47,737 bases of DNA from Candidatus Acidiferrales bacterium. Its GTDB lineage: Bacteria; Acidobacteriota; Terriglobia; Acidiferrales; UBA7541. Position 1 is the first letter of the stretch. Each line of letters opens with the position of its first letter. Positions 20,110 through 47,733 of this stretch are shown piece after piece. Location: contig DATEVZ010000312.1 of NCBI GenBank assembly GCA_035258265.1, positions 1-47,737 on the forward strand, given 5' to 3'. The translations under genes were made by a program, and so were the position numbers. The notes beneath the pieces are model-generated. The model was not told the origin of the DNA. It saw only the letters and a program-made list of their open reading frames with translations, and did no database searches.

Positions 20110-20113
20110 ATTC

Positions 20114-22357: not shown

Positions 22358-22871
22358 ACACGGGCCCGGGCGCGACCCGCACGGCGCGCCGCACGAAGGC
22401 TACGAACACAGCGACGCCAATCCGCGCAGCTTGTCAAAATGGGCGGTAGCGCTGGCGATCGTGATGGTCATCGTCTTTGTCGCCATGAGGTGGCTGTTCT
22501 TTTTCTATGGAAAAGTCCAGAGCCTGGGCCGGCCTGCTTCACCGTTCGAAAACGCGCGCGTGTTGCCGCCGCATCCGAGATTGCAAACCGATCCTCGCGC
22601 GGACCTTCACGCGTACTGCGCTCAGCAGCTCGCGACGTTGAATAGTTACGGATGGGCGGACCAGCACAATGGAGTGGTGCACATCCCAGTTGACCGCGCC
22701 ATGGAGCTGACGCTGCAGCAAGGTTTGCCGGCGCGCGCTGCGGGAGAAGTTCCGCCCGGCATCAGCAATCCGGCGCCCTTCGTGCCCAATGTCACAGACG
22801 CGCAAGGCCCCTGCGGCTTCGTCACCGAGCGTGATGCGGACCACGAAATGAGCGAGGAAGCGAAGCACTAG
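22341..22871 (+). CDS. Single-TM membrane protein coupled to actF (candidate accessory subunit of the ACIII/oxidase cluster)
   Basis: ATG 22341 is preceded by GAAGGAG at 22325-22331 and overlaps the actF end by 17 nt. It has a His-rich N-terminus, one TM (WAVALAIVMVIVFVAMRWLFFFY), and a periplasmic part containing LNSYGWADQHNGVVHIPVDRAM. Confidence 0.65.
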   Translation: MSMETKHGPGRDPHGAPHEGYEHSDANPRSLSKWAVALAIVMVIVFVAMRWLFFFYGKVQSLGRPASPFENARVLPPHPRLQTDPRADLHAYCAQQLATLNSYGWADQHNGVVHIPVDRAMELTLQQGLPARAAGEVPPGISNPAPFVPNVTDAQGPCGFVTERDADHEMSEEAKH

Positions 22872-23000
22872 CCGCAGCCCGTTGCTGGGGTTTTCAGGAG
22901 GTCGGAGCTTTAGCTCCGCCAATAAACGTGACTCTGTTGCAGGGGCTTTCGTCTCTGCGGGCGAGTTCGGATCTTTTAACGCGGTAGAGGAAAATCTTAG

Positions 23001-23870
23001 TTGCGTGGATCTGCCAATTTCGACTTGAAACAAAAATGTCTCGCGGCGCTCGCGACAAGCGTCGCCGCCCTGGCGCTCGCGTCCAGCGCCAGAGCCCAAC
23101 TAACATCGGACCCCCTGCAAAGCGTGGGCGTGCGCCCGGAGCTCCTGAAACAGGTGGGAATCGACCAGAAACTGAACCAGCCCATCCCCCTAAATCTCGC
23201 GTTCCACGATGAAAACGGCAAGACCGTGCAACTCAACGAATACTTCGGCCAGAAGCCGGTTATCCTCACACTGGTGTATTACAACTGCCCGATGCTCTGC
23301 ACGCAAATCCTGAACGGCGTCGAATCGGGACTAAAAGAACTGCCGATGGATATCGGCAAACAGTTCAACGTGGTCACCGTCAGCATCGACCCAACCGACA
23401 CACATGTGCTGGCCTCGGTGAAACAGGAGATGTACACCGGAATGTACGGCCGCACCGGTGCCGCTCAAGGATGGCATTTCCTTACTGGCGATGAACCGCA
23501 AATCAAACAACTCGCCGCCGCCGCCGGCTTCCGCTACGCTTACGATCCCGATACCAAGCAGTTCGCGCACGCCAGCGCCATCATGATCTTGACACCCGAA
23601 GGAAAAATTTCGCGCTATCTCTACGGCATTCAGTTCCCTTCGCGCGACCTGCGTCTGGGCCTGGTGGAAGCGTCGGAAGGAAAAATCGGCTCGCCCGTGG
23701 ATCAGGTTTTGCTCTTTTGCTACCACTACGATCCACACACCGGAAAATATGGCTTACTGATTTCGCACATCATCCAGGCCGGTGGAGCGCTTACCGTGTT
23801 GATCATTGGAGTGGTTGTGCTGATTTTGTTTCGCGGCGAGCATTACGCGCTGCCGCAAAGAAAGGCATGA
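23001..23870 (+). CDS. SCO1/SenC-family copper chaperone (CuA assembly)
   Basis: Thioredoxin-like CxxxC motif YYNCPMLCTQ, a downstream His (FAHASAIMIL), a signal peptide, and a C-terminal TM. The start is TTG at 23001 or 23022. Confidence 0.85.
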   Translation: MRGSANFDLKQKCLAALATSVAALALASSARAQLTSDPLQSVGVRPELLKQVGIDQKLNQPIPLNLAFHDENGKTVQLNEYFGQKPVILTLVYYNCPMLCTQILNGVESGLKELPMDIGKQFNVVTVSIDPTDTHVLASVKQEMYTGMYGRTGAAQGWHFLTGDEPQIKQLAAAAGFRYAYDPDTKQFAHASAIMILTPEGKISRYLYGIQFPSRDLRLGLVEASEGKIGSPVDQVLLFCYHYDPHTGKYGLLISHIIQAGGALTVLIIGVVVLILFRGEHYALPQRKA

Positions 23871-23929
23871 ACGCGGACGCTGCGCGAAAGCCCGCTCCTC
23901 CGCGAAAGGCTTACTCAGAGAGATTATGA
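23867..23929 (+). CDS. 20-codon bridging mini-ORF ([20 protein letters not shown]) between the SCO gene and ctaC
   Basis: Its ATG overlaps the SCO stop (ATGA, 23867-23870). Its TGA overlaps the ctaC ATG (ATGA, 23926-23929). Read directly from the sequence, with no homology evidence. Confidence 0.2.
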   Translation: MNADAARKPAPPRKAYSERL

Positions 23930-24921
23930 CTGGTCTGATTCAATCGAGCTTGCACCCCCTAGCCGCGGCGGCCATGCTGATCCCGCTCAAGCCGAGGGCC
24001 GCTTCCTCCATCGCCCAAGGTGTGGATAACCTATATTTCGCACTGACGGTGATCACGCTCTTTTTCACCATCCTGATTTTCTCCACCATTTTCTTTTTCA
24101 TGATCAAGTACCGCCGCCGCTCTCCGGACGAAATCCCTGCGGACACCGGCGAGCACCTGGGCCTGGAACTGACCTGGACGATCGTCCCCACCCTGATCAC
24201 TGTGTTCATTTTTATCTGGGGTTCCAGTTTGTACTTTGAAAATTCCAGACCACCGGAAGCTGCCACCGAAATTTTTGTCGTCGGCAAGCAATGGATGTGG
24301 CATATCCAGCATCCCGAAGGTGTGCGCGAAATCAATGAGCTGCACGTCCCGGTGAATACGCCGATCAGCATCACCATGACCTCAGACGACGTCATCCACG
24401 ATTTCTACATCCCCGCATTCCGCGTGAAGAAAGACGCCGTTCCCGGCCGCTACACTTCACTCTGGTTCCAAGCCACCAAGATTGGCACCTATCACATTTT
24501 TTGCGGCCAATACTGCGGCGCGGACCATGCCGAAATGATCGGCTGGGTCTACGTAATGTCGGGCACCGATTACGCTGCGTGGCTCTCCGGCGGCGCAAGG
24601 AACGAATCAATGGCGCAAACCGGCGAGCGGCTCTTCAACCAGCTCGGCTGCGTCACCTGCCACGTTACGGACGGCACCGGCCGGGGGCCCTCCCTGGTCG
24701 GCCTCTACGGCAAACCGGAAAAATTGCGCGACGGCAGCACAAGGGTCGTGGATGAGACCCTCATCCGCCAGGCCATCGTCAATTCCAATTCCATCCCGTT
24801 ACCTAATTATCCGCCGATCATGCCCTCCTTCCAGGGCCAGGTTAACGAGGAGCAGGTGCTGCAGCTGATCGCCTACGTGAAATCGCTCGGCGCGGAAGAA
24901 AGGAAGACCAACGGCAAATGA
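23926..24921 (+). CDS. ctaC: Cytochrome c oxidase subunit II with a fused C-terminal cytochrome c domain (caa3-type)
   Basis: Two N-terminal TM helices, CuA motif [15 protein letters not shown], and C-terminal haem c motif CVTCH. Confidence 0.95.
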
Positions 24922-26567
24922 GCACCACGGTCATTGCGGAACCGCCCGGCCATGAAGTTCCGGCTGGATCGCGCGTCAACTATCTGAACGCGAACTACGG
25001 CGTGAAGTCCTGGCTCTTTACCACGGACCACAAGCGCATCGCGCTGCTGTATCTCGGCTCGATCACTCTGATGTTTTTTGTTGGCGGCTTTTTCGCAGTG
25101 ATGATGCGCCTGCACCTCATCGAGCCCCAGGGCGCCTTGGTCGCTCCCGAAACCTACAACAAGCTGTTCACCATGCACGGAGTCATCATGGTGTTTTTCT
25201 TCCTGGTGCCTTCGATTCCCGCCACCTTGGGCAATTTCCTCGTGCCCATGATGATCGGCGCGCGCGACCTGGCTTTCCCGCGGCTCAACCTTCTCAGCTG
25301 GTACATCTACATCATCGGTGCGGCGTTCACGCTTTACGCCGTCATTTCCGGCGGCGTGGACACCGGATGGACGTTCTACACGCCCTATAGCAGCACGTTT
25401 TCGCACACCAGCGTGATCCCTACGGCTCTCGGCGTGTTCATCACCGGATTCTCCTCGATTCTCACGGGATTGAATTTCGTCGTCACCATTCACAAAATGC
25501 GTGCTCCCGGGCTAACCTGGTTCCGGCTCCCGCTTTTCATCTGGGCCATGTACGCCACCAGCATCATTTTCATTCTGGGCACGCCGGTGATCGCGATCAC
25601 GCTGTTCCTCTTGTTCCTCGAACGCGTCATGCACATCGGCATCTTTGACCCCGCCATTGGCGGCGACCCGATTCTGTTCCAGCATCTTTTCTGGTTCTAT
25701 TCCCACCCCGCCGTGTACATCATGATTCTGCCCGGCATGGGTGTGATGAGCGAACTGATTACCTGCTTCTCCCGCAAGCGGATTTTCGGCTACAGCTTCG
25801 TGGCTTTCTCCAGCTTGGCGATCGCGATCATCAGTTTTTTGGTCTGGGGACATCACATGTTCGTCACCGGCCAATCCATCTACGCGGGGCTGATTTTCTC
25901 GGTGCTGAGTTTCCTGGTGGCGATCCCCTCCGCAGTAAAAGTTTTCAATTGGACGGCCACGCTCTATAAAGGCTCGATTTCCTACGACGCCCCGATGCTC
26001 TACGCGCTCGGCTTCATCGGCCTGTTCACCATGGGCGGCCTCACGGGACTGTTCCTGGCGTCGCTCGCCACCGACGTCCATCTCAACGGCACCTATTTCA
26101 TCGTCGCCCATTTCCACTACATCATGGTCGGCGGCGCGGTGATGGCGTACCTCGGCGGCATTCATTTCTGGTGGCCGAAAATTACCGGGCGCTTGTACCC
26201 GGACGGTTGGGCTCGATTTGCCGCGCTGGTAATCTTCGTCGGATTCAATCTCACTTTCTTTCCGCAATTTATGCTGGGATACCTGGGCATGCCGCGCCGC
26301 TATGCCGTTTATCCCAGCGAATTCCAGGTCTTGAACGTGATGTCGTCCGCCGGCGCTTCCATTCTCGGCATCGGCTATTTGATCCCGCTGATCTATTTGC
26401 TCTGGTCCATTCGTTATGGGCCGGTCGCTGGACCGAATCCCTGGCGCGCCAAGGGCCTTGAATGGCAAACGCCTTCGCCGCCGCCCACTGAAAATTTTGA
26501 GGAGATTCCTATCGTTACCGAAGACGCCTACGATTACGCGGGTGTCACAGGAGCAGGCCGTGGCTGA
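24918..26567 (+). CDS. ctaD: Cytochrome c oxidase subunit I
   Basis: A 12-TM haem-copper oxidase with WGHHMF and HFHYIM motifs. It has an ATGA overlap with ctaC. Confidence 0.97.
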
Positions 26568-26568
26568 G

Positions 26569-27255
26569 ATGGCCGCACATGGCGCGCATCCCGAGGGATT
26601 CGCACATCAATTCGAAGATATGGAGCAGCAGCGCGAGGCCGGTAGCCTGGGGATGTGGGTGTTTCTGGTCACCGAAATCATGTTCTTCGGCGGCCTGTTC
26701 GCCACCTACATCATTTACCGCTCGCTGTACTTGCCTTCCTTTGAAATCGGCAGCCGCTTGCTCAATGTGAAGTTTGGTGCGGCCAACACGGCCGTACTGA
26801 TCGGCAGCAGCCTGACCATGGCTCTTGCGATCCACGCCGCGCAGGCCGGCAAGAAAAAATCCGAGCAGGTGATGTATCTGGTCCTCACCATGATTCTGGG
26901 CGCCGCTTTCCTGTTCTTGAAATTCAATTTCGAGTGGCGCGCCGATTATGCCGAACACCTGATCCCCGGATTTGGCTTCATCATTCGCCCCGAGTGGGGC
27001 GGCGCCGGCTCGCATGTCCCCATGTTTTTCTGCTTTTACTTCTTCATGACCGGCTTGCACGCGCTGCACATGATTATCGGGTTCGGCATCCTCAGCGTCC
27101 TGACGGTCATGGCCTCGCGCGGCCGCTTTAATTCAGAATACTACGCGCCTCTTGAAGTTAGTGGCCTCTACTGGCACTTCGTGGACATCGTGTGGATTTT
27201 CCTGTTTCCGCTGCTCTACTTGATCGGCGGGCGATACGTCATGGGAGGCCACTAG
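26569..27255 (+). CDS. ctaE: Cytochrome c oxidase subunit III
   Basis: The ATG is 1 nt after the ctaD stop. The sequence MWVFLVTEIMFFGGLF...WHFVDIVWIFLFPLLY is typical of subunit III. The ORF-track start at 26416 is an upstream extension inside ctaD. Confidence 0.9.
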   Translation: MAAHGAHPEGFAHQFEDMEQQREAGSLGMWVFLVTEIMFFGGLFATYIIYRSLYLPSFEIGSRLLNVKFGAANTAVLIGSSLTMALAIHAAQAGKKKSEQVMYLVLTMILGAAFLFLKFNFEWRADYAEHLIPGFGFIIRPEWGGAGSHVPMFFCFYFFMTGLHALHMIIGFGILSVLTVMASRGRFNSEYYAPLEVSGLYWHFVDIVWIFLFPLLYLIGGRYVMGGH

Positions 27256-35285: not shown

Positions 35286-35338
35286 GCCTCAGCAGTGCGG
35301 CAACTGCCGCGATGTCGTCCGCGGCTTTCACCGCTGAG
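35286..35338. repeat. Nested-hairpin element in the ppk2/aminotransferase gap
   Basis: Outer 11-bp stem CCTCAGCAGTG/CACCGCTGAGG (10 of 11 paired). Inside, GCCGC(G) can pair either with the upstream GCGGC (35296-35300) or with the downstream CGCGGC (35319-35324). It shares a GCGGCAAC...CGATG core with the 70-nt repeat family. Confidence 0.45.
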
Positions 35339-35415
35339 GGCTGAATCTCAACTTCAAGCACACACCTAAAAGACGAGCGATTCTAGCAGAAATCCTGCTT
35401 CCAACAATCGCACGC

Positions 35416-36267
35416 TTACCTCTGTTTCAATTTCTTCACGTCCATCGTCGGTGCCGGAAACTTCAGTTTCATTCCCTCCAGCGTCTCGGAGATGATGTGC
35501 GAAACCGCGAGATTGCGGAACCATTTCTTGTTCGCGGGAATAATGAACCACGGCGCTGCTTTCGTATTGCAACGTGTGAGCGCGTCCTGGTACGCCTCGG
35601 TGTAATCGTCCCAGAATTTCCGCTCGTTGAAATCCGCTTCCGAAACCTTCCAGCGCTTCTCCGGGTCGTCCACGCGCTTGATCAGGCGTTTCTTCTGTTC
35701 GTCCTTGTTGATGTGCAGAAAGAATTTCAAAATCTTGACGTTATTTGCGTCCAGATACTCCTCGAACTGATTGATTTGATCGTAGCGCTGCGACCACATC
35801 GCCTTCGGCACCAGATTGTGCACTCGAACGATCAGCACATCCTCGTAATGCGAGCGGTTGAAGATTCCGATATCGCCATATCCCGGCACCGCGTGGTGCA
35901 CGCGCCACAAGTAATCGTGCGCAGCCTCTTGCGGCGACGGCGCCTTAAAAGCCGTAACGCTGCAACCCTGTGGATTCACCCCGGACATTACGTGCCGGAT
36001 GGTGCCGTCCTTCCCCGCCGCGTCGCGCCCCTGAAAAACGACCAGCAATGCGTGCTTACGATTGGCGTAAAGAAGGTACTGCAGGTGATCCCGTTTCTTG
36101 ATGGCCTTATCTAGGCTAGCTTTCATTGTGTGATTCTTGCCCCAGCCTAGTGTCTCGTTAGGATCGAACTTCTCCAATTTCACTTTCTTTCCCGGCTTTA
36201 CCATCAGTTCCTTCGTGCAGTTCGTAGCCACGGGTCCGCGCGCCTTCCTGTTTTTTGCCTGTTGCAT
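35416..36267 (-). CDS. ppk2: Polyphosphate kinase 2 family protein (single-domain PPK2)
   Basis: Walker A FQGRDAAGKDGT, then HDYLWRVH and IFNRSHYEDVL motifs. An alternative, better-supported start is the ATG at 36204, preceded by GAAGGA at 36214-36209. Confidence 0.9.
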   Translation of the reverse strand: MQQAKNRKARGPVATNCTKELMVKPGKKVKLEKFDPNETLGWGKNHTMKASLDKAIKKRDHLQYLLYANRKHALLVVFQGRDAAGKDGTIRHVMSGVNPQGCSVTAFKAPSPQEAAHDYLWRVHHAVPGYGDIGIFNRSHYEDVLIVRVHNLVPKAMWSQRYDQINQFEEYLDANNVKILKFFLHINKDEQKKRLIKRVDDPEKRWKVSEADFNERKFWDDYTEAYQDALTRCNTKAAPWFIIPANKKWFRNLAVSHIISETLEGMKLKFPAPTMDVKKLKQR

Positions 36268-36269
36268 TC

Positions 36270-36339
36270 CTAGCGACGCACTTTAGTGCGCCAGCGGTGT
36301 CGCGGCAACCATCGATGGCGGTCTGAAGACCGCCGCTAC
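36270..36339 (+). repeat. Copy B of the ~70-nt structured repeat
   Basis: Sequence CTAGCGACGCACTTTAGTGCGCCAGCGGTGTCGCGGCAACCATCGATGGCGGTCTGAAGACCGCCGCTAC. Hairpin 3 is a perfect 7-bp stem (GGCGGTC-TGAA-GACCGCC). It starts 3 nt beyond the first ATG of the ppk2 ORF. Confidence 0.8.
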
Positions 36340-36370
36340 AAAGGCTGGTGCCGTTTCCGCGCACGCTTCA

Positions 36371-36380
36371 ATCACGTGAT
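36371..36380. promoter_or_regulatory. Perfect 10-nt palindrome ATCACGTGAT in the ppk2/tmk-like divergent region
   Basis: Seen directly in the sequence. The binding factor is unknown. Confidence 0.3.
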
Positions 36381-36472
36381 GAGCGACCACACTCCAACAA
36401 ATTCCAACACCCTCAATCTTTGGTTGTAACACTTTTTTCACGTTTGGGCTTATAGTTCCGCGATATCATAGA

Positions 36473-37240
36473 ATGTTGTCGTCAGGTTCCACACGAATGG
36501 GGATACTTACGTCAGAAGTTCCTACCGCCATCGAGCCGCTCCCAATCAAAGAGCCGGCGCCCAAGCGCCAATATCCCGGCGCCCTGGTTGTAGTCGAAGG
36601 AATTGACGGCTCCGGCAAAAGCACGCAGCTCTATCTCCTGAAACGCTGGCTAGAAATCGGCGGTTACCGCATCCACTTCACGGAGTGGAACTCCTCACCG
36701 CTAGTCAAGTCCGCCACCCGCCGCGGCAAACAGCGGCGACTGCTCACGCCGACCACATTTTCACTGCTTCACGCCGCCGATTTCGCGGACCGCTGCGAAC
36801 GCCAAATCATGCCGCTGCTCCACGGTGGCTATCTGGTCCTCGCCGACCGCTACATCTACACTGCTTTCGCGCGCGATAGCGCCCGGGGCTGCTCCCCACA
36901 CTGGCTGCGCAATCTTTACAGCTTCGCGCCTACTCCGGACATCACCTTTTATTTTCGGGCCCCGCTCGACGTGGCCGTTAACCGCATCGTCGCTGGCCGA
37001 CCCAAGCTGAAATATTACGAAGCCGGCATGGACCTGGGTATTTCGCTGGACCGCGCCGAAAGTTTCCGTATCTTCCAGGAACGCATCCTCAACAACTACG
37101 ACCAGATGATCGATAGCGATCATTTCGTCTTGATGGATGGCACCGTGCGCGTAAACAAGCTCCAAAAACTCATGCGCCAGATTGTCGGCGAACGGATTTC
37201 GCTGCAACAATTTGCGCCCAAAAACTCGAAGAACAAATGA
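36473..37240 (+). CDS. Thymidylate-kinase-like P-loop kinase, paralogue 1 (divergent, extended)
   Basis: Walker A VVEGIDGSGKST and a DRY-type motif LADRYIYT. At 255 aa it is longer than a canonical Tmk (roughly 210 aa, recalled rather than looked up). Confidence 0.8.
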   Translation: MLSSGSTRMGILTSEVPTAIEPLPIKEPAPKRQYPGALVVVEGIDGSGKSTQLYLLKRWLEIGGYRIHFTEWNSSPLVKSATRRGKQRRLLTPTTFSLLHAADFADRCERQIMPLLHGGYLVLADRYIYTAFARDSARGCSPHWLRNLYSFAPTPDITFYFRAPLDVAVNRIVAGRPKLKYYEAGMDLGISLDRAESFRIFQERILNNYDQMIDSDHFVLMDGTVRVNKLQKLMRQIVGERISLQQFAPKNSKNK

Positions 37241-38055
37241 CGCGCTCCGGAAAAACTTCGCTGAAAACCAATGGCTCAAACGGCCGCCCTCACAAGAAAC
37301 AGAAGGCCGCCGCGGTGGAAGCGCCTTCGCGCTTTTACGGCGCTCCTCTGCCCGGAGTGAAACCCGAAGAACTCAGCGGCACACTCATCGTGATTGAAGG
37401 CACTGATGGTTCGGGCCGTTCCACGCAAATCTCGCTCCTGACCGAGTGGCTCGAATCCGAAGGCTTCGCGGTACAAACCATGGGCCTGCGCCGCTCCTAT
37501 CTCGTCGGCGAAGACATTGACGGCTTGCTGGCCGAGAATGCCGTCACGCGCATGACCCTCTCGCTGATGTACAGCACCGATTTCTTCGATCAGCTCGAAC
37601 GCCGCATTCTCCCCGCGCTTCGTTCCGGTCTGATCGTTCTCGCCGATCGGTACATTTTCACCTTGATCGCGCGCTCCGCCGTCCGCGGTATTGGCCGCGA
37701 CTACTTGCATGGAATTTACGAAACTGCTTTGTGCCCGGACCTCACCTTTTGGCTCAACGTGCGTCCCGAAGTCGCTTTCGATCGCGAGTTCAAAAAGTCG
37801 CAGACCATCAGCTACTGGGAATCCGGCCGCGACATGTCGCTTTCGAATGATCTGTTCCAGTCCTTTATTCGTTATCAATCCATGATCAAGCGCGAATTCG
37901 AGTATCTTTCCAGGCGGCACGGCTTCATCGAAACGGACGGCGAAAGCAGCGTCTCCGAGGTGAACAGGGTGTTGCGGAAGCGCATCGCCTTGCATCTTGG
38001 CATCCGGAGCACGCACTACAAGCCTTCGCACGCCTTGTCGCATCTCTGGCGATAG
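37237..38055 (+). CDS. Thymidylate-kinase-like protein, paralogue 2, with a Lys-to-Arg Walker A
   Basis: VIEGTDGSGRST, with the Arg codon CGT at 37417-37419 where the P-loop Lys is expected. It also has LADRYIFT and a basic ~45-aa N-terminal tail. It overlaps paralogue 1 by ATGA. Confidence 0.8.
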   Translation: MTRSGKTSLKTNGSNGRPHKKQKAAAVEAPSRFYGAPLPGVKPEELSGTLIVIEGTDGSGRSTQISLLTEWLESEGFAVQTMGLRRSYLVGEDIDGLLAENAVTRMTLSLMYSTDFFDQLERRILPALRSGLIVLADRYIFTLIARSAVRGIGRDYLHGIYETALCPDLTFWLNVRPEVAFDREFKKSQTISYWESGRDMSLSNDLFQSFIRYQSMIKREFEYLSRRHGFIETDGESSVSEVNRVLRKRIALHLGIRSTHYKPSHALSHLWR

Positions 38056-38059
38056 ACGA

Positions 38060-39619
38060 GTGGCCGCGCCCGTTCAATTGGCAGCCATTGACGCTGGCTC
38101 CAACGCCATCCGTCTCGTCATAGCCCGCGCCACTTCCCCTAAAGACATTGAAATCCTCGATAACGAACGCGCATCAGTGCGCTTGGGGCACAACGCGTTC
38201 ACCCGCCGTGTCATTAGCGGTGCCACGATTTCTCGCGCCGCGCGTGCGTTTCGCCAGTTCCGCGATCGCATGGATCAGTACAATGTTGGCGCATACCGCG
38301 CTGTTGCCACTGCCGCCGCGCGCGAGGCCCGCAATTATCGCCGTCTGATGGACCGCATCCGCAGAAAAGCGGGCATCGAGCTGGAAGTAATCGGCGCGGA
38401 GGAAGAGGCACGCCTGGTTTGCTCCGCGGTCGAGTGGGCTGTAGGCGATCGGGTGCAGCCGCGGCTGATTTTCGATCTCGGCGGCGGGAGCCTCGAACTA
38501 AACTTCTACCAACGCGGCGTTCTGGAACATCGCATCGGCCTGCCGCTCGGCACCATCCGCCTGATGGAAACCTATTCGATCGAAGGCGCGATCGACGAGG
38601 ACGACGCCAACCGTCTCCGCCATCACATCCTCTCGTTGCTGCGCAGTGCGATGCCTTCTCCTCCCCGGCTGAGCCGCTCGCTTGCAGTCGCCTGCGGTGG
38701 AAACGCCGAAGCTCTTGTACGCATCGCTCAAGGCCCGCCGATCGAACGCATTCCCACCATCAACACCCGGCTCCTTCGCGATCAAACCTGGCGAATGTTG
38801 AGCCTCGATATTCCCGGCCGCATGCGCGTCTTCCGCCTGCGCAAAGACCGCGCCGAGGTCATCGGCATAGCCGCGATTATTTTCAACACGCTTGCCAAAT
38901 GGCTCGACCTGCGCACCATGCTCGTTCCCGGCGTCGGCGTGCGCGAAGGCATCCTGCTCGACCTCGTTGCCGAACAATATTCCGTCCGCATCACTTCCGA
39001 AGAGGAAAAGGGCCGCGCCTCCGAACTGCTAGCCAGCGCCCGTTGGTTCGCGCGTCGCCTGGATTACAATCCGCAGCACGCCGAACAGGTCGCGCGCCTC
39101 GCGCTCTCTCTTTTCGATCAGTTGCGGCCTATCCATGAAATGGGCGCAGACCTCCGGTTAGTTCTCGAAATGGCCGCGTTGCTGCATGACGTCGGCCATT
39201 TCATCTCGCGCAAGTCGCATCACCGCCACGGCGAATACCTCATCCGCAACGGCGAAATCCCCGGCCTCCGTGGCTGGCGCCGCGACATGGTCGCTGCCAT
39301 CGTCCGTTACCACAATTCCAAATCTGAGCCGGAACTGGAGCACGCCTCGTACGCGGCCCTCGATAGCGAGCGCCGCCGCCACGCCCGCCTGCTCACCAGC
39401 CTGCTCCGTATCGCCGAGAAACTCGAGTCCGAGCACGCCCAGCACATTACCGGTGTGGACGTCCAGATTTCCGGCCACAAAGCCATTTTCGTGATCCGCG
39501 CTTCGGAGGGCACGCGCCTCGACCTCATGGGCCTCGAACGCAAATCCACGCTCTTCGAACGCGAATTTCACCTCAAACCAGAATTCAGGCGCGCTCAGGG
39601 CAAAGAAAAGGTAGCCTAG
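38060..39619 (+). CDS. ppx: Exopolyphosphatase / guanosine pentaphosphate phosphohydrolase (Ppx/GppA) with a C-terminal HD-like domain
   Basis: ASKHA-fold start AAIDAGSNAIRLVIA, then DLGGGSLEL, and C-terminal LLHDVGHFISRKSHHRHGEYLI. The GTG start at 38060 lies 4 nt after the preceding stop. Confidence 0.9.
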   Translation: MAAPVQLAAIDAGSNAIRLVIARATSPKDIEILDNERASVRLGHNAFTRRVISGATISRAARAFRQFRDRMDQYNVGAYRAVATAAAREARNYRRLMDRIRRKAGIELEVIGAEEEARLVCSAVEWAVGDRVQPRLIFDLGGGSLELNFYQRGVLEHRIGLPLGTIRLMETYSIEGAIDEDDANRLRHHILSLLRSAMPSPPRLSRSLAVACGGNAEALVRIAQGPPIERIPTINTRLLRDQTWRMLSLDIPGRMRVFRLRKDRAEVIGIAAIIFNTLAKWLDLRTMLVPGVGVREGILLDLVAEQYSVRITSEEEKGRASELLASARWFARRLDYNPQHAEQVARLALSLFDQLRPIHEMGADLRLVLEMAALLHDVGHFISRKSHHRHGEYLIRNGEIPGLRGWRRDMVAAIVRYHNSKSEPELEHASYAALDSERRRHARLLTSLLRIAEKLESEHAQHITGVDVQISGHKAIFVIRASEGTRLDLMGLERKSTLFEREFHLKPEFRRAQGKEKVA

Positions 39620-39623
39620 AGGT

Positions 39624-40118
39624 ATGATTCTTTATCTAGTACGCCACGGGATCGCCGTTGATCGAGAGGATCCCCAAGCTCCCTCGGAGGCGGAGCGTCC
39701 TCTGACCGCCAAGGGAGTCCAAAAAACGCGCGCCGCAGCGCTCGGCCTGCAGTCCCTGCACGTAAAGCCGGATGTGCTCATCACTAGCCCCTACGTCCGC
39801 GCTGCGCAAACCGCGGAAATCTTCGCCGAAACCTTGGGCTTTTCGCTGCAAAAAATCCGCACACATGACGCATTGAAACCGGCCGCTAATCCTGCTGACA
39901 TCGTCAGGGAAGTGATTCGCGTGCGCACCAAGGAAGTAATGTGCTTCGGCCATGCGCCGCATCTTGATCTGACGATCGCGCACATCGCCGGCGCTCGCGC
40001 TGTCTTCACCACGCTGAAAAAAGCTGGCGTTGCCTGCCTGGAATACACAGCTTCACATGGAAAGTGGGAATTGCGGTGGATTTTGACGCCGCGGATGCTG
40101 CGTCAGCTAGCGGATTGA
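39624..40118 (+). CDS. sixA: Phosphohistidine phosphatase SixA (histidine phosphatase superfamily)
   Basis: N-terminal LYLVRHG catalytic motif and a later GHAPH. Length 164 aa. Confidence 0.85.
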   Translation: MILYLVRHGIAVDREDPQAPSEAERPLTAKGVQKTRAAALGLQSLHVKPDVLITSPYVRAAQTAEIFAETLGFSLQKIRTHDALKPAANPADIVREVIRVRTKEVMCFGHAPHLDLTIAHIAGARAVFTTLKKAGVACLEYTASHGKWELRWILTPRMLRQLAD

Positions 40119-41062
40119 AGGCGCGGTGCCTCGGTGCTCTCGGAAGTTTGCATGATGTGAATGTTTTGGAATCCGGCGCGCCATACCTGCCACAGCGATT
40201 CCTTCGCCCGGCCGTGATTCTCCGAAGCGCCGCCCGCATTGGCTGAACTGGCTCCATTGCCGCCTATCAGTGATCGGAACTCGTCCAGTCGCGTCTTTCG
40301 CGCCTCTTCAATTTTCTGATACCAGTGCAGCACGTCCGCCCGCTGCAATTTGGCGCGCTGCCGCCGGATTTCGCTGCGCAGTACGTCCATATCGTGCACT
40401 TCGCCCAGCAAATCCTGGATACGCTTCAAATTCTTGCTCCACGGCTCATAGCGCTGCGGCACGAAATTTTCCAGGGTGTAGCGGAACCCTTTCAACCCGA
40501 TCCGCAGCCGGTGCCACGCAACGCGGCTGCGCCCCTTGCGCGCGCGTTGGTAAAGTTCGGCGGCCTCATTGAGCCGCGTCAACGCCAGCCGCTGAAACAC
40601 CACGCTCTCCAGCGGAAAGAACTGTGCCTTGCCCCCCAGCTTCTGCGCCCACTTCCGCCAGCTCTTGCGGTCGAAGTCGTCCAGCGCTTTCTCCGCCTCT
40701 TTTTGCTGCTTGCTTTCGGCCTGCGCCAGAATCTTCAGCACATGCTTCCGGACCGGATTGTCCGCGACCGAAAGCTCTTTCAGCCATTCCTGCTCTACCT
40801 GAGTATCCCGCAACTCCCCCAGCGCGTGAAATAATTCGCGGCTGTCTTTCTTCAGCTTTCGCCACCCGCGGTCCGAATTCACTTCGCTCAGCGCCTCCGC
40901 CATTGTCCGGCAGCGCCGCAGCGCCACGCGCAGGTCATGTACATCCTTGGATTTCCAACCCTCTTGGACGGCATTCGCCAGTTCCAGGACGCGGTTCATC
41001 CAGTTCTCCAATCCAATACGTTTCGTTGAACCACCCGCGGGCAAGGAGATCGTTTGTGCCAT
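40103..41062 (-). CDS. CHAD-domain protein (polyphosphate-granule-associated family)
   Basis: Repeated conserved-His helical blocks: VHDLRVALRRCR, WHRLRIGLKGFRY and LGEVHDMDVL. It converges on sixA and overlaps it by 16 nt. Confidence 0.85.
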   Translation of the reverse strand: MAQTISLPAGGSTKRIGLENWMNRVLELANAVQEGWKSKDVHDLRVALRRCRTMAEALSEVNSDRGWRKLKKDSRELFHALGELRDTQVEQEWLKELSVADNPVRKHVLKILAQAESKQQKEAEKALDDFDRKSWRKWAQKLGGKAQFFPLESVVFQRLALTRLNEAAELYQRARKGRSRVAWHRLRIGLKGFRYTLENFVPQRYEPWSKNLKRIQDLLGEVHDMDVLRSEIRRQRAKLQRADVLHWYQKIEEARKTRLDEFRSLIGGNGASSANAGGASENHGRAKESLWQVWRAGFQNIHIMQTSESTEAPRLQSAS

Positions 41063-41328
41063 GGTCAGTACTGGCTTGCAGGAAAGCCAAGCAGAATTGC
41101 CTATCCTACACCCGCAAATCCCTTTTTTTCAATGCGCGGCACTTTCTGGGCGATAGTCGGCTCAGCCCGGCCTGGAGGACCGACACTTCAGACTGTAAAC
41201 AAATATTCGCAGAAAATTCACACAGCCTCTGTTGGCCCGCGCCTGCGCACCGGCCAAACCCGGTCGATCCAGCATCCATTTCCGAATTTCCCCGGCTCGC
41301 GCATAATGGACGCTTCGGAGGCTCCGCC

Positions 41329-42180
41329 ATGGCGCGCAAACCCCGTAGCGTGGGTCTAACCCAGGTGTCTGAATGGAACGACGGCGTACTTCGCCGCAAA
41401 GACGACTATCTCGCTGCCGAGGAGCCGCTCGAAATCCGCCTAGGTGATGAACCCATGAGCGTCACCATGCGCACGCCCGGGCACGACCTGGAACTCGCCG
41501 CCGGTTTCCTGTTCACCGAAGGTCTAGTGCAGCAGCGCAGCCAGCTCACGGCCCTCGAAATCCCCGCGCAGGAAAACGGCTCCCAGAACGGTTCAAGAAC
41601 CGGCAACGTGGTCCAGGCCCGGATCTCCCCCGATGCCGCGCCCGACATGGAGAAAATCCGCCGGAATTTTTTCGCCGCGTCCAGTTGCGGCATCTGCGGA
41701 AAAGCTTCGATTGAAGCCATCCGCGCGCGCAATCTCACCACGCCCAATCCAGACTTTCGCCTCGACGCCGAAGTCCTGTTGCGCCTACCGGAGAAGCTGC
41801 GCTCCGCGCAAGACGTGTTCGAACGCACCGGCGGGCTCCACGCCGCAGCCTTGTTCGATCCACGCGGCGAATTGCTCGTACTGCGGGAGGATATCGGCCG
41901 CCACAATGCCGTGGACAAAGTGATTGGCTGGGCGCTGCTGGAAAACCGCGTGCCCATCACGGATTCCGTCCTGCTGGTCAGCGGGCGCGGCGGCTTCGAA
42001 ATCATCCAGAAAGCGATTGTCGCGGGCCTGCCGCTGGTCGCGTCCGTTTCCGCGCCGTCCAGCCTCGCGGTTCAACTCGCGCGCGAACTGCGCCTCACGC
42101 TGATCGGATTCCTGCGTGGCACAAGATTTGTGATCTATTCCGGTGAAGAACGAATCGCGCGTTCCAAGCGGGATGCTTAA
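41329..42180 (+). CDS. fdhD: Formate dehydrogenase accessory sulfurtransferase FdhD
   Basis: SSCGICGK catalytic loop, GGLHAAALF and EDIGRHNAVDKVIG. The ATG at 41329 is preceded by GGAGG. The 518-aa ORF in the track is an upstream extension antisense to the CHAD gene. Confidence 0.9.
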   Translation: MARKPRSVGLTQVSEWNDGVLRRKDDYLAAEEPLEIRLGDEPMSVTMRTPGHDLELAAGFLFTEGLVQQRSQLTALEIPAQENGSQNGSRTGNVVQARISPDAAPDMEKIRRNFFAASSCGICGKASIEAIRARNLTTPNPDFRLDAEVLLRLPEKLRSAQDVFERTGGLHAAALFDPRGELLVLREDIGRHNAVDKVIGWALLENRVPITDSVLLVSGRGGFEIIQKAIVAGLPLVASVSAPSSLAVQLARELRLTLIGFLRGTRFVIYSGEERIARSKRDA

Positions 42181-43601: not shown

Positions 43602-44447
43602 CTATTCCTTGCGAACCGTCGCTTCAATCAGCCCGTGCGGCTCGTCGGTAGGTAAAAATACTTGAGCGGGGTTGTCCATGCCGAAGGACGAAAGGTCCAC
43701 CAGGTTGAAATGCTTATTCGGCAGTGAGAGGCGAATTTCGCGGAGGCGCTCGAAGTTCCTCAGTACCGCCTCCCCCATCGCATATAAAGTGTGCTGTAGC
43801 GACTCGCTGTCGTGCTCCGCAAACGTCTCCAGCATCGTTTGGCGTATGCCGTGCCAGTGTTGGCTGTATTCGATCTCGCCGCTTTCATATAGCCAGTCCG
43901 CGTGGATGGAGGTCGAGAGGATCCTGTTGCGGTCTTCCCTGAGCGTGGTGTACGGATCTCGCAAGAATCCTTCAAACGCTGACTTCGTGGTTTTCAGCAC
44001 AATCAAATCCACAATCCCCGATCGAATCAAGGTTCCTTCGCGCGTTCCGCTCAGCGTCGCAGTACGTTTCTCTTCGCCTCCACGCACAAATGCCGACGCA
44101 TGCGGTTTGCCGCCGATCACGATCCGGTTCCACAGATTTTCCGCGGCCTCAATGCCGACCCGCGCGACCTGCGGGTTGTACGTCAGGAAATGCTCGATCA
44201 GGTGCTGACAAAAATCTTCCACCGCTTCCACGGGATATTGCCGCGCCAGGGCGTACACTGTGTTTTTCATCGTGTCGGTTGGCAGGATCTTCGTGTTGTC
44301 GCCTTTGGTGTGTGCGGTTTCGAAATCGCCCTCGAATGAAATTCCCAGCGTCAACTCGCGAATATCGTGGCGTCCCTCTTGCCGAAGCACTCGCAGCAAA
44401 CGAATCCGCGATTTACCGTAATTGTTTTCCGCGAGCTTGATCGTCAT
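43602..44447 (-). CDS. Factor-independent urate oxidase (uricase)
   Basis: NNYGKSRIRLLRV at the N-terminus, then TDTMKNTVYALA. The 281-aa, two-T-fold-domain length fits uricase. Confidence 0.9.
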   Translation of the reverse strand: MTIKLAENNYGKSRIRLLRVLRQEGRHDIRELTLGISFEGDFETAHTKGDNTKILPTDTMKNTVYALARQYPVEAVEDFCQHLIEHFLTYNPQVARVGIEAAENLWNRIVIGGKPHASAFVRGGEEKRTATLSGTREGTLIRSGIVDLIVLKTTKSAFEGFLRDPYTTLREDRNRILSTSIHADWLYESGEIEYSQHWHGIRQTMLETFAEHDSESLQHTLYAMGEAVLRNFERLREIRLSLPNKHFNLVDLSSFGMDNPAQVFLPTDEPHGLIEATVRKE

Positions 44448-44450
44448 CCA

Positions 44451-44789
44451 TCAGCTCCCACGATATGTGGAATACCCGTAAGGGCTCAGAAGCAGCGGAA
44501 TATGGTAGTGCTCTGTTGTGTCCTGAACCTCGAACGCGATCGTAATTTGCGGATAGAGCGCGCGAATCTTGCGCGCCTGAAAATAGGCGTGCGTTTCAAA
44601 CGTGAGCCTGTACGTCCCCTCCGCCAGCGTTCCCGGCTCCAGAAGATGCCGCAGCCGCCCGTCCGCGTCCGTCGCACCGCGGCTGATTTCCTTCCAGCCG
44701 CCGGCCTTCTGAATTTCCAGTGTGACCTGCACGCCCGCAGCGGGCCGTCCCACAGAAGTATCAAGCACGTGCGTGGTAATCTGGCTCAT
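44451..44789 (-). CDS. uraH: 5-hydroxyisourate hydrolase (transthyretin-like)
   Basis: MSQITTHVLDTSVGRPAAGV at the N-terminus and the C-terminal YSTYRGS signature. The 112-aa version starts at 44789 (ATGA overlap with the upstream stop), whereas the ORF-track start at 45041 is an extension. Confidence 0.9.
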   Translation of the reverse strand: MSQITTHVLDTSVGRPAAGVQVTLEIQKAGGWKEISRGATDADGRLRHLLEPGTLAEGTYRLTFETHAYFQARKIRALYPQITIAFEVQDTTEHYHIPLLLSPYGYSTYRGS

Positions 44790-46324
44790 ACTGCTAAAAG
44801 TTTCTCCAAGCGCAGCCGCGTAATTTTCTTCTGCTCGTCCGCGGCCATTCGCAATTCCACTTCCAGGTCGTTCGCCAGGCGCTCTTGAATCGCTTTCAGA
44901 ATTTCCTCGCTGGTTTTCCCCGTGGCGCAAATCAGAAACACGTGCCCGAAGGTTGTCTGGTACGCTTCGTTCGCGGCCGCTAGCACAGCGAGCGTTTCCG
45001 CGGATGCCTTCTGCGCCACGGATTGCTCGCCAGCGGACCAACGCTGCGCCGTTGCCGTTTGTTTCGCAGCCGCCTTCTTTCCGCCGATCGCGGGATGGGC
45101 GTGAAATGCCGCAAGCCAGTCTCGGCGACTAAGCGTCGCCCAAGCATCATCCGCCGCATCGTAAAGGCCCGCCGCATCGCTGAAGGGCCGACGCGCCAAC
45201 ACCTGCTCGACCCATTTTTTCGAAACGCAGCAATCCAGGAGCGCCTTAGCCGCCTGGGCTTGTGCCATCTGGTTCAATCGTTCAATCCCGGTAAGCCTGT
45301 CCGCCGCCTGCGACGCCCGCCCGAAAGCACGGAAACGGCTGACTCCACCGTCCGGAAAAATATTCAGCCGCACATGAGTGGCCGGACCTGCGTCGTGTAG
45401 CTGGTTGCGAAAAATATGAAGACGGTTCGCCTTCAGCGGAATCTGCGGTAGCAGTTGCTGCCAGTCCACGGCCGAGGAGTCAGACGTCAAGCGGGAGATC
45501 TCCGCTTTGCCACCTTCCGCGTAGCAAACCTCTACCGAACAGCTGTCGGGAAAATTTCCTTTGAAATGTGTGGTGTCAATTTCAATCCGATCGATCGAGC
45601 CTGCCATCCCCAATTTAACGATTGCCCAATCGTGGCCCGGTCCCCGACGGCGACGCGTTTCCCAACCGTCACTCATCTGTTTTGCGCGCCCCGGCATCAG
45701 CAAGTTCAACGGCGCGCTATAGAATTGATCGCTGGACGCAACGGCGCGCCCGCCATTTTCGACCGCCGCCAGGTCGAATTCTCCTTTGCTCATTCGCGCC
45801 GCGTCGGGGATCACTTCCCCATATAGTCGCAGCCGCGCCACGCCGCCGTCGGGATATATTTTGAAGCGCACGTGCGTGAAGCGTCCGGCGTGTTCGATGG
45901 CGACATGATTTTGCGAATCGCCTTTCAGTGCGGTTTCCGGTAACAATTCCGTCCACTTTGCCGTCGAGGCGAGGAGTTGTTTTTTTTCGTCCTTGTAGGG
46001 TACTGCGCCGCCGATTTTGCAACCCTCGAGCGAAAATCGCCCGGGATAGTTTCCCGTGAAGAAGCTGGTATCCACTACCACGCCGCGGAGAATTCCCGGC
46101 AAACCCAACCGGATAATGCACCAATCGCATCCCGGCGTGCGCCGCCGGCGCGTCTCCCAGCCATCCATCCAATGTCCGCGCGACGTGAATCTTCCTTCGA
46201 CAAAAATCGGCTTCGCCTGCTTCAACAGATTTTCTTTGGGAGCGAAAAATTCGTCGTTGGCCGCAATCACGCGCCCGCCCAGCCGCTCGGCTGCCAGATC
46301 AACAAGTTGAGTGAAATCGTTCAT
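44786..46324 (-). CDS. Fusion protein: allantoicase (two repeats) plus a C-terminal OHCU decarboxylase (UraD) domain
   Basis: The N-terminal ~340 aa has duplicated allantoicase blocks (DGWETRRRR occurs twice, with FTGNYP and FKGNFP). The C-terminal ~165 aa has OHCU-decarboxylase features (AFHAHPAIGGKK, FLICATGKTSEEIL). Confidence 0.85.
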   Translation of the reverse strand: MNDFTQLVDLAAERLGGRVIAANDEFFAPKENLLKQAKPIFVEGRFTSRGHWMDGWETRRRRTPGCDWCIIRLGLPGILRGVVVDTSFFTGNYPGRFSLEGCKIGGAVPYKDEKKQLLASTAKWTELLPETALKGDSQNHVAIEHAGRFTHVRFKIYPDGGVARLRLYGEVIPDAARMSKGEFDLAAVENGGRAVASSDQFYSAPLNLLMPGRAKQMSDGWETRRRRGPGHDWAIVKLGMAGSIDRIEIDTTHFKGNFPDSCSVEVCYAEGGKAEISRLTSDSSAVDWQQLLPQIPLKANRLHIFRNQLHDAGPATHVRLNIFPDGGVSRFRAFGRASQAADRLTGIERLNQMAQAQAAKALLDCCVSKKWVEQVLARRPFSDAAGLYDAADDAWATLSRRDWLAAFHAHPAIGGKKAAAKQTATAQRWSAGEQSVAQKASAETLAVLAAANEAYQTTFGHVFLICATGKTSEEILKAIQERLANDLEVELRMAADEQKKITRLRLEKLLAV

Positions 46325-47733
46325 ACCGAGCCTCGCAACAGAACATGGCCTATGGGGCTCGCGGAAAATTCTCCGCGCTCGAAAATCTTGCGGCCTCGCA
46401 AGAATGTCGTGGCAACCATTCCCTTAAGTTCGCGTCCGGCGTACGGCGTGATTTTGTGACGGTGATGTAGTTGGACCGGATCCACGCGAAACTTTTCGTC
46501 GGGATTCCAGATCGCAAAATCGGCGTCGCAACCCACCGCGATGGACCCCTTGCGTCGATCCAACCCCGCGAGCCGCGCCGGGCCCTCGCATAACCACTTC
46601 GCAACGTGCGTGACAGCATAGCCGCGCGCGCTTGCCTGCGTCCAGACGGCAGGCAAACTCAGTTGCAGGGACGCGATCCCGCCCCACGCGCGCAAGAAGT
46701 CGCCCTCCTCAGGCAGCTTCATGGCTGGAGGGCACGGCGAATGATCCGTCGCTATGAAATCAATCGTGCCGTTCGCGAGTCCTTCCCACAATTTCTCGCG
46801 ATTCTCCTGCTCGCGAATCGGCGGCGCGCATTTGAATTCCGTCGCGCCCTCTGGAACCTCCTCTGCGGTGAACGTCAAATAGTGCGGGCAGGTCTCGACG
46901 CTAACTTTGGCGCCGTCGTTTCGCGCGTGCTGCAGCACCGGAATCGCGTCGCACGACGATAAGTGCACGATATGAATCCGCGCGTTAAACTCGCGGCTCA
47001 AGCGCAGTAGCAGCGCGACCGCTTCGTTCTCCGCATCGCGCGGACGGGACGCGAGCCACCTGCTATAGCGCCGCGCGGACGCATTCTTGGGCAGGTTTGC
47101 AACGGCTTTCTCGATCGGCTCCGGCATCTCTGCGTGCCCCAACAGAGGCGCGCCCAGTGCGACAAGTTCCGGCAGGGCGCTGCGAAGATGTTCCTTTGTC
47201 ACGAATTCGAATTCCGGAACGCCGCTGGGCACCAGGAAACACTTGAAACCGAAAACGCCCGCTTCCCATAGCGGCCGTAGCTCGGCAATGTTTCCGGGAA
47301 CCAGGCCGCCCCAAAATCCCGCATCCACCCAAAGTTTGCCCGCCGCTGCGGCCAGCTTTTCGCGAAACGCTCCTGCCGATGTCGTTGAGGGGATGCTATT
47401 GAGCGGCATCTCAACCGAGGTCGTTACGCCGCCCGCAGCAGCCGCGCGTGTGGCGCTCGAAAATCCTTCCCACTCCGTGCGGCCAGGCTCATTGATATGA
47501 ACGTGCGTGTCCACAATCCCGGGCATCACCACCAAGTCGCCGGCCTCGTGGATGGCAACTCGGCTGGGAACTTCGTTGAACTCGGTCAGCGCCGTTACCA
47601 CGCCGCCACGAACGTGTATCGCCGCCGCTCGCTCACCATCGGGCGTGACAACACGCTTTCCGCGAACGATGAGATCATCTGTTGCGGTCGGCCCTGGCGA
47701 CGAATTCCCTGAGGGATCAGGAGGCTTATTCAT
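46321..47733 (-). CDS. allB: Allantoinase (cyclic amidohydrolase superfamily)
   Basis: Metal-binding motif GIVDTHVHINEPGRTEWEGF, 470 aa, and an ATGA overlap with the allantoicase fusion gene. The start codon is 4 nt from the window end. Confidence 0.9.
   Translation of the reverse strand: MNKPPDPSGNSSPGPTATDDLIVRGKRVVTPDGERAAAIHVRGGVVTALTEFNEVPSRVAIHEAGDLVVMPGIVDTHVHINEPGRTEWEGFSSATRAAAAGGVTTSVEMPLNSIPSTTSAGAFREKLAAAAGKLWVDAGFWGGLVPGNIAELRPLWEAGVFGFKCFLVPSGVPEFEFVTKEHLRSALPELVALGAPLLGHAEMPEPIEKAVANLPKNASARRYSRWLASRPRDAENEAVALLLRLSREFNARIHIVHLSSCDAIPVLQHARNDGAKVSVETCPHYLTFTAEEVPEGATEFKCAPPIREQENREKLWEGLANGTIDFIATDHSPCPPAMKLPEEGDFLRAWGGIASLQLSLPAVWTQASARGYAVTHVAKWLCEGPARLAGLDRRKGSIAVGCDADFAIWNPDEKFRVDPVQLHHRHKITPYAGRELKGMVATTFLRGRKIFERGEFSASPIGHVLLRGSV

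Follow-up and report, generated by a model that had tools for sequence, protein, structure and literature searches.

What do two adjacent genes encode when both resemble thymidylate kinase (dTMP kinase, Tmk) and one of them has an arginine in the place of the Walker A lysine? The question is raised by a 47,737-nucleotide stretch of DNA from Candidatus Acidiferrales bacterium (contig DATEVZ010000312.1; "the window" denotes this whole stretch, as analysed), in which two open reading frames (ORFs), referred to as ORF1 and ORF2, overlap on the forward strand. With a probability of roughly 85%, we take them to be the catalytic and the regulatory subunit (cPPK3 and rPPK3) of a polyphosphate kinase of family 3, PPK3. 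The analysis established the homology of the two proteins, the orthology of ORF1, the conservation of motifs, the synteny and the fold. The features of the pair are the following.

36473-37240, forward strand: ORF1, candidate cPPK3, the putative catalytic subunit (255 amino acids)
36596-36625, forward strand: Walker A motif of ORF1, EGIDGSGKST (Lys49, codon AAA at 36617-36619)
36845-36853, forward strand: DRY motif of ORF1
37237-38055, forward strand: ORF2, candidate rPPK3, the putative regulatory and probably non-catalytic subunit (272 amino acids)
37237-37240, forward strand: ATGA overlap of the ORF1 stop codon (TGA) with the ORF2 start codon (ATG), read directly in the sequence
37237-37326, forward strand: N-terminal tail of ORF2 (residues 1-30), basic, of low model confidence and probably disordered
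37396-37425, forward strand: Walker A motif of ORF2, EGTDGSGRST (Arg61, codon CGT at 37417-37419)
37645-37653, forward strand: DRY motif of ORF2, retained

An earlier note, made from the sequence alone, had described ATGA-coupled paralogs of the Tmk fold with 255 and 272 residues, their P-loops, a LADRYI segment in both, and a basic N-terminal tail in ORF2. Coordinates, overlap and motifs hold in every respect, and the tail possesses seven Lys/Arg plus one His within its first 28 residues. In addition, ORF1 contains a TEWNSS motif. Its first eight residues are unmatched in several close orthologs, and Met9 (ATG at 36497) is a possible true start. The two proteins share 35% identity across 224 residues (E 5e-44); judged from this alignment, the resemblance is not due to chance. 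An AlphaFold2 model of ORF2 reaches a mean pLDDT score of 91.5, with block means of 49-60 over residues 1-30, and the low values suggest that the tail is disordered. The tail sequence varies among relatives. It is basic in the closest Acidobacteria (L003-L034) and in Verrucomicrobiota (L044-L081), with 8-11 Lys/Arg per 25-35 residues and, in the latter, a recurrent IVVP..KPRR motif; in a middle acidobacterial clade (L035-L042) it is acidic, not basic.

The system with which the pair has to be compared is PPK3 of the archaeon Sulfolobus acidocaldarius (SaPPK3), described by Hofmann et al. (bioRxiv 2024, 10.1101/2024.08.28.610084; J Biol Chem 2026, PMC12995831). Two genes annotated as thymidylate kinases, Saci_2019 and Saci_2020, lie in one operon together with sixA, ppx and a gene for a CHAD protein, and their products form a heteromeric enzyme (PMC12995831). 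Saci_2019 (cPPK3) is catalytic and alone makes polyphosphate (polyP) from ATP; Saci_2020 (rPPK3) is inactive, yet it activates Saci_2019, with a maximum at a ratio of 1:1. In size-exclusion chromatography SaPPK3 behaves as an alpha2-beta2 assembly, built on an rPPK3 dimer; its reaction is reversible and favors polyP + ADP -> ATP (PMC12995831). The inactivity of rPPK3 was attributed to the replacement of the arginine of the DRX motif. Neither Saci_2019 nor Saci_2020 has dTMP kinase activity, which is present in a third paralog, Saci_0893. Most genomes with PPK3 possess neither PPK1 nor PPK2, and they tend to hold a canonical tmk elsewhere. ST1543 of Sulfurisphaera tokodaii is the cPPK3 of that species (PMC12995831).

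According to their annotation, the two genes of the window would be ordinary thymidylate kinases, i.e. a duplicated tmk pair that supplies dTDP. Both proteins match the Pfam family Thymidylate_kin (PF02223; E 2e-20 for ORF1, 8e-20 for ORF2), their relatives are labeled 'dTMP kinase' by NCBI and JGI, and ORF1 with 83.6 bits barely reaches the cutoff of the dTMP-kinase profile TIGR00041 (83.25 bits). However, ORF2 stays below this cutoff (81.5 bits; both scores are borderline), and both proteins are far nearer to ST1543 and Saci_2019 than to characterized Tmks. Identity with Saci_2019 amounts to 48% for ORF1 (E 2e-68) and to 35% for ORF2, which shares 29% with Saci_2020 (E 2e-26). The best solved relative of both is ST1543 (2plr/5h70; E 4e-60 for ORF1, 3e-38 for ORF2), and genuine Tmks match far more weakly, at only about 1e-12. 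Identities of ORF2 rise to 48% with the rPPK3 of Nitrososphaera and to 50-52% with those of Ferroacidibacillus and Akkermansia. Furthermore, the motif by which true Tmks bind dTMP is absent, every partner in the operon is a gene of polyP metabolism, and the assayed homologs from Sulfolobus, unlike Saci_0893, show no dTMP kinase activity (PMC12995831). Two ordinary thymidylate kinases are thus a highly improbable solution. 'Tmk-like', as the earlier note had called the pair, gives way to PPK3 as the name of the family, whose Sulfolobus members are not dTMP kinases.

The phylogenetic position of the pair was examined in a neighbor-joining (NJ) tree of 82 sequences, rooted with E. coli Tmk and calculated from Kimura distances with 200 bootstraps; this is a simple distance method, and its support figures are rough. 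Both ORFs are placed among the PPK3 sequences, in a clade apart from the canonical Tmk of E. coli. ORF1 clusters with Saci_2019 and ST1543 in 193/200 bootstraps, and its assignment as a cPPK3 ortholog has good support from these sequence comparisons. In 126/200 bootstraps ORF2 and Saci_2020 form a group apart from E. coli Tmk and the c-type proteins, so that support for ORF2 as an rPPK3 ortholog is moderate. ORF2 and Saci_2020 also have signatures in common that c-type proteins do not show, i.e. G(L/I)xxS for EWNSS, DQxE for DRxE, and TL for TA. Two other histories were considered and rejected: independent duplications in bacteria and archaea, a topology found in no bootstrap (0/200), and, on the basis of that count, a recent local duplication that gave rise to ORF1 and ORF2. 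At the structural level, the model of ORF2 is a confident dTMP kinase fold, with ST1543 as its best fold match (template-modeling score 0.89-0.92); fold alignments of the model with solved Tmks give about 21-27% identity.

A comparison of 33 c-type and 44 r-type sequences, column by column, separates the two subunits at the level of single residues. Residues conserved in at least 85% of the c-type sequences, but not conserved in the r-type, are (in the numbering of ORF1) W72, N73, S74, K86, T92, P93, F96, S97, H100, R107, A131, D135 and R176. ORF1 itself has the Walker lysine K49 and the DRX arginine R126, along with W72, N73, S74, K86, P93, H100, R107, D135 and R176, and ORF2 shows at the 13 positions, in order, L, R, R, L, T, R, L, S, Y, Q, L, S and S. 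Several of the c-specific residues are basic or stand at the dTMP-binding place of true Tmks; E40-P41, the dTMP-binding EP pair in Tmk from E. coli, aligns with W72-N73 of ORF1 and with L84-R85 of ORF2, and Hofmann et al. describe a corresponding replacement for the family. This pattern fits the published proposal that a basic polyP cleft replaces the dTMP pocket in cPPK3 and is absent from rPPK3. The r-type sequences keep the glycines of the P-loop, R146, R150 and the lid arginine R183 (86-100%), and DRY is kept in 95% of those sampled. From these columns, the bacterial r-subunit appears much less degraded than Saci_2020. The replaced DRX arginine that was described for the r-subunit is not found in ORF2, which has LADRYI.

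What, then, marks the regulatory subunit? A scan of species-representative genomes matched at least 600 stretches, and at least 574 of these proved to be related to ORF2; unless another set is named, counts of motifs, overlaps and gene orders given here and below refer to the 80 best loci among the matches listed. In all 120 of the 120 closest homologs of ORF2 (81-93% identity) the Walker position reads G-R-S-T. The r-gene has SGRST in 78 of 79 loci, while GKST is present in the upstream c-gene of 77 out of 77. Six arginine codons are in use at this position (CGC 58, CGT 11, CGA 8, and AGG, CGG and AGA once each), which argues for purifying selection on arginine. Arginine is also found in representatives with only 35-50% identity, and cysteine in some lineages. 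A sequencing error or a strain polymorphism, the two trivial explanations of Arg61 that the earlier note had named, is thereby ruled out: on the strength of the 120 homologs, the 78 genomes and the six codons, the change from lysine to arginine is real, and it is old.

Among archaea, the r-subunit of Nitrososphaera has GRST and keeps DRY. Those of Metallosphaera sedula, S. tokodaii and Acidianus manzaensis read GSGRT, and those of S. acidocaldarius and S. solfataricus have the Walker lysine. The DRX arginine is lost, with DGY in its place, in four of the five r-subunits from Sulfolobales that were checked; for the fifth, from S. solfataricus, the motif search gave nothing. In the sequences at hand the recurrent lesion of the r-subunit across the family is that of the Walker lysine, and Saci_2020 is atypical in this respect. 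The likely cause of the inactivity hence shifts from the DRX motif, lost only in the Sulfolobales sampled, to the lysine of Walker A. Neither this change nor Verrucomicrobia are mentioned in the main text of the preprint or of the J Biol Chem version; the lysine-to-arginine change as a family-wide mark of rPPK3, and the PPK2 gene that adjoins the locus in the clade of the window (described below), are not part of the published main text.

The two subunits are consistently associated. Wherever the contig allows it to be seen, the c-gene lies directly upstream of the r-gene in all related loci, and the 4-base ATGA overlap recurs in 53 of about 76. Natural fusions extend this picture. A protein of 460 amino acids from Alicyclobacillaceae (P0124) is a cPPK3-rPPK3 fusion, and four others of 620-696 amino acids (P0143, P0154, P0172, P0268) consist of cPPK3, rPPK3 and, after these, an HD domain similar to PPX domain III; all fusions keep the c-r domain order of the operon. 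The r-domains of these proteins have no Walker lysine but loops such as GAHHAGVTH, GVPGSGTSL, GADKHATAR and GRESSRREA, and such degenerate P-loops imply that a domain need not, in general, have a working nucleotide site to fill the r role. Two further proteins (P0212 and P0224) contain two Tmk-like domains each, neither with a Walker lysine, and P0264 is a fusion of a NUDIX domain with cPPK3. The invariant order of c before r with its frequent ATGA overlap, the c-r fusions and the c-r-HD fusions are three independent lines of evidence which support a physical interaction of the subunits.

The earlier note had proposed an obligate heterodimer of a catalytic and a regulatory or pseudo-kinase subunit, acting on dTMP or possibly on another substrate. 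If this is read as a Tmk-like heterodimer that phosphorylates dTMP or another nucleoside monophosphate, the asymmetry of a canonical and a degenerate P-loop speaks for it, as does the translational coupling, and both are real. Yet homology and gene context imply polyP and ADP/ATP as substrates, the evidence against an ordinary Tmk applies here too, and the published assembly is a heterotetramer on an r-r dimer rather than a Tmk-type dimer. Such an enzyme is even less probable than a pair of ordinary thymidylate kinases. What survives of the proposal is the pairing of a catalytic with a pseudo-kinase subunit, for which Saci_2019 and Saci_2020 are the precedent, together with the idea of a substrate other than dTMP; the simple Tmk-like dimer does not agree with the published alpha2-beta2 assembly.

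The function of the pair is revealed by its neighbors, i.e. the genes for PPK2, PPX, SixA and CHAD. The locus is laid out as a polyphosphate island: a class-III-like PPK2, the operon cPPK3-rPPK3-PPX-SixA, and a CHAD gene.

35416-36267, reverse strand: single-domain PPK2, a class-III-like polyphosphate:AMP/ADP phosphotransferase, divergent from the PPK3 operon
36268-36472, no strand: divergent intergenic region between PPK2 and cPPK3, 205 bp between the start codons, presumed promoter region for both
38060-39619, forward strand: exopolyphosphatase PPX, Ppx/GppA with a C-terminal HD domain III, likely start GTG at 38060
39624-40118, forward strand: SixA-type phosphohistidine phosphatase, which closes the operon and starts 4 bases after the PPX stop
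40103-41062, reverse strand: CHAD-domain protein (polyphosphate-granule-associated domain), convergent with the operon; Pfam CHAD, E 6e-29

The PPK2 assignment is based on the Pfam PPK2 domain (E 2e-72) and on TIGR03709 (390 bits against a cutoff of 247). Its nearest solved relatives are named polyphosphate:AMP phosphotransferase (5lc9/5o6k, E 3e-87; presumably the class III PPK2 of Meiothermus ruber), and 6au0 is also near. The molecule names of 6au0 include 'PPK3 Class III'; together with the earlier application of 'PPK3' to a PPK2-type enzyme (PMC4400040, PMC3163519), this one PDB entry makes for a clash of names, and text searches for 'PPK3' in databases mix two unrelated families. Of the 26 acidobacterial loci that are closest (L003-L028), 22 have PPK2 upstream of the pair; in the 54 loci at a greater distance it is absent from this position. 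A scan of positions 35300-41200 for the sigma-70 consensus and for intrinsic terminators yielded counts not above the shuffled expectation and nothing within 36268-36472, and we only infer that a promoter for both genes is located there.

Downstream, the GTG of PPX at 38060 stands 4 bases past the stop of rPPK3. The mechanically predicted ORF opens already at TTG 37997, and the conserved N-terminus AAIDAGSN comes after GTG 38060. PPX matches Pfam Ppx-GppA (E 3e-36), Ppx-GppA_III (E 8e-26) and HD (E 7e-9) as well as the exopolyphosphatase profile TIGR03706 (213 bits), and it is syntenic in every acidobacterial locus that reaches that far. SixA is recognized by TIGR00249 (75.8 bits against a cutoff of 74.5) and by a match to Pfam His_Phos_1. 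The position of CHAD is conserved among related acidobacterial loci, and the set of PPX, SixA and CHAD is present also in the loci of S. acidocaldarius, M. sedula and Nitrososphaera. In more distant Acidobacteria (L023-L041), a reverse-strand CHAD, which lies some 3-4 kb downstream of the r-gene, is immediately followed by a segment that resembles the C-terminal HD region of PPX (28-37% identity); this suggests that CHAD is either fused to an HD part or accompanied by a small HD gene.

Taken together with the Sulfolobus precedent, these results allow us to infer an enzyme activity, a stoichiometry and the inactivity of ORF2. ORF1 would bind ATP or ADP at its normal P-loop and would transfer the terminal phosphate onto a polyP chain end, or take it from there, with the chain held in the basic cleft that takes the place of the dTMP pocket of true Tmks. 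ORF2, with its Walker arginine and without the acceptor residues of the c-type, most likely does not catalyze phosphotransfer; it would assemble with ORF1, probably as alpha2-beta2 as in Sulfolobus, and raise its activity. The ATGA coupling would ensure roughly equimolar synthesis of the subunits. With the co-transcribed PPX and SixA, and with PPK2 and CHAD, the locus is predicted to control the exchange between polyP and ATP/ADP and to complete the turnover of polyP. By analogy with SaPPK3, the net direction would mainly be polyP + ADP -> ATP at low energy charge. The basic tail of ORF2 may contact polyP.

Several points weigh against this assignment to PPK3. The biochemical precedent is archaeal, and the bacterial members are known by sequence. 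The PPK2 gene adjoining the locus runs contrary to the published tendency of PPK3 genomes to be devoid of PPK1 and PPK2. The orthology of ORF2 and Saci_2020 is backed by an NJ bootstrap of 63% from a simple distance method, i.e. by moderate support. Moreover, the published cause of rPPK3 inactivity, the replaced DRX arginine, is inapplicable to ORF2, where DRY, R146, R150, R183 and the glycines of the P-loop are kept, so that the inactivity of ORF2 would have to follow solely from the lysine-to-arginine change and the altered acceptor site. As a rule, P-loop enzymes with a lysine-to-arginine change continue to bind nucleotide, and residual activity is sometimes kept. In line with this usual behavior, ORF2, whose site is intact but for Arg61, may still bind phosphate or nucleotide without transfer.

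The same observations raise the question of whether ORF2 is a second active or ligand-sensing site, i.e. an allosteric sensor of energy charge that would bind ATP/ADP or the polyP end, or the catalyst of a different step such as AMP -> ADP. The conservation of DRY, of the P-loop glycines and of R146, R150 and R183 in the r-type argues for it, and so does the arginine itself, which over 78 of 79 genomes and six codons is selected and not drifting. The replacement of arginine by cysteine in some lineages, and the His, Val, Thr or Arg-rich loops of the fused r-domains, can be counted on the same side, as can the trace of ADP that Saci_2020 produced (PMC12995831). Against it stand the grossly degenerate P-loops of fused and deep-branching r-domains (GAHHAGVTH, GRESSRREA), the r-subunits of Sulfolobales without the DRX arginine, the inactivity of Saci_2020, and the missing basic acceptor-site residues in ORF2. 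On balance we regard a second active or sensing site as unlikely, and a non-catalytic rPPK3 remains our reading of ORF2.

A more specific hypothesis within PPK3 is put forward here as a tentative and rather doubtful one. The hallmark of rPPK3 would be a selected Walker arginine in an intact nucleotide site (P-loop glycines, DRY, lid arginine), and the loss of the DRX arginine, proposed from Sulfolobus, would be a local trait. The rPPK3 of bacteria and Nitrososphaera might then be a non-transferring sensor of ATP/ADP or of the polyP end, which tunes cPPK3 to the energy charge, with the basic tail tethering the complex to polyP. PPK2 (AMP -> ADP) and PPK3 (ADP <-> ATP) could in this case form the two arms of a polyP-driven recharging of adenylates.

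With regard to the distribution of the family, about 40 of the 80 best loci are labeled as Acidobacteriota, Acidiferrales or Terriglobia and about 35 as Verrucomicrobiota. The remaining ones belong to Ferroacidibacillus organovorans and to metagenome-assembled genomes labeled Anaerolineae, Dongiaceae, Geobacteraceae, Methylomirabilota, Dormiibacterota, Binatia, Eisenbacteria and Bifidobacteriaceae. At 50% identity, relatives with E <= 1e-10 fall into 1412 clusters, a number which includes c-type and possibly other Tmk-like proteins. For bacterial homologs, the published article speaks of 'a few bacteria' (PMC12995831), and the preprint names Acidobacteriota once (10.1101/2024.08.28.610084); judged from the sequences collected here, the bacterial distribution of PPK3 is wide and goes beyond 'a few'. 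Hundreds of genomes of soil and freshwater bacteria carry the pair under the label 'dTMP kinase', mainly from Acidobacteriota and Verrucomicrobiota, plus the cultured F. organovorans. To recognize it as PPK3 corrects the annotation of polyP metabolism in abundant, mostly uncultured phyla. One acidobacterial clade keeps PPK2 and PPK3 linked and thereby offers a natural case in which to ask why two different polyP:nucleotide phosphotransferases are maintained side by side.

The genes of the window are chromosomal housekeeping genes, with no sign of a mobile element. Among them are miaA, lpxI/lpxA, respiratory complexes and purine catabolism; a blastn comparison of the ORF pair with a plasmid collection gave no match, and neither tmk nor ppk1 is present within the 47.7-kb window. 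Three other parts of it deserve a record. On the forward strand, positions 14949-27255 hold a cluster resembling alternative complex III (an NrfD-type membrane subunit, a multihaem cytochrome c and a 4Fe-4S protein of 1027 amino acids), followed by SCO1 and the cytochrome c oxidase subunits II, I and III. On the reverse strand, positions 43602-47733 hold a purine catabolism cluster with uricase, a fused allantoicase and OHCU decarboxylase of 511 amino acids, and an amidohydrolase. A mechanically predicted forward-strand ORF at 40624-42180, with its FdhD/NarQ domain at residues 264-511, shares more than 400 bases with the CHAD gene on the opposite strand; fdhD itself probably starts much further downstream, near 41400.

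How does the locus compare with known systems? The bacterial PPK3 operon is almost certainly a further example of the family published in 2024-2026, which already mentions Acidobacteriota, and not a new system. SaPPK3 and the ORF pair have in common two adjacent, overlapping paralogs of the dTMP kinase fold, with the c-gene upstream of the r-gene and ppx, sixA and CHAD in the locus. Their c-subunits agree in the intact Walker A motif, DRY and EWNSS, and their r-subunits in the missing acceptor-site residues of the c-type. They differ in gene order, which is c-r-ppx-sixA with a convergent CHAD here and sixA-ppx-c-r-CHAD in Sulfolobus. They also differ in the lesion of the r-subunit, since Saci_2020 combines a Walker lysine with DGY, and ORF2 a Walker arginine with DRY. 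The basic, low-confidence N-terminal tail of about 30 residues in ORF2 is absent in Sulfolobales, and PPK2, a neighbor here, is absent from Sulfolobus.

On the structural side, ST1543 (STK_15430) of Sulfurisphaera tokodaii was deposited as 'dTMP kinase' (2plr, 4nzy, 4rzx, 5h70) and today counts as a cPPK3. From this c-type protein, which reads GSGKSS, ORF2 differs at the Walker lysine and at the acceptor-site residues; PDB searches with both ORFs and with the model of ORF2 turned up no structure of an r-subunit or of a complex. The PPK3 operon of Nitrososphaera (L084) is archaeal and has the order sixA-ppx-c-r-CHAD, unlike that of the window. Its r-subunit resembles ORF2 in EGPDASGRST, in LADRYI and in a conserved RFYG...P segment before strand 1, but its N-terminal tail is short.

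Two enzymes outside PPK3 share parts of this design. Two-domain class II PPK2, for instance that of Pseudomonas aeruginosa (PA3455/PPK2C), analogously combines an inactive and an active kinase-fold module, for oligomerization and activation, a parallel drawn by the authors of PPK3 themselves (PMC12995831). It differs in that it belongs to the PPK2 family and not to the dTMP kinase superfamily, that its modules are fused, and that its substrates are AMP/GMP instead of ADP. Canonical Tmk (TIGR00041, EC 2.7.4.9) has the fold, the P-loop, the DRX motif and the lid in common with both ORFs. In the latter, however, the dTMP-binding EP motif is replaced, and the two proteins form part of a separate clade.

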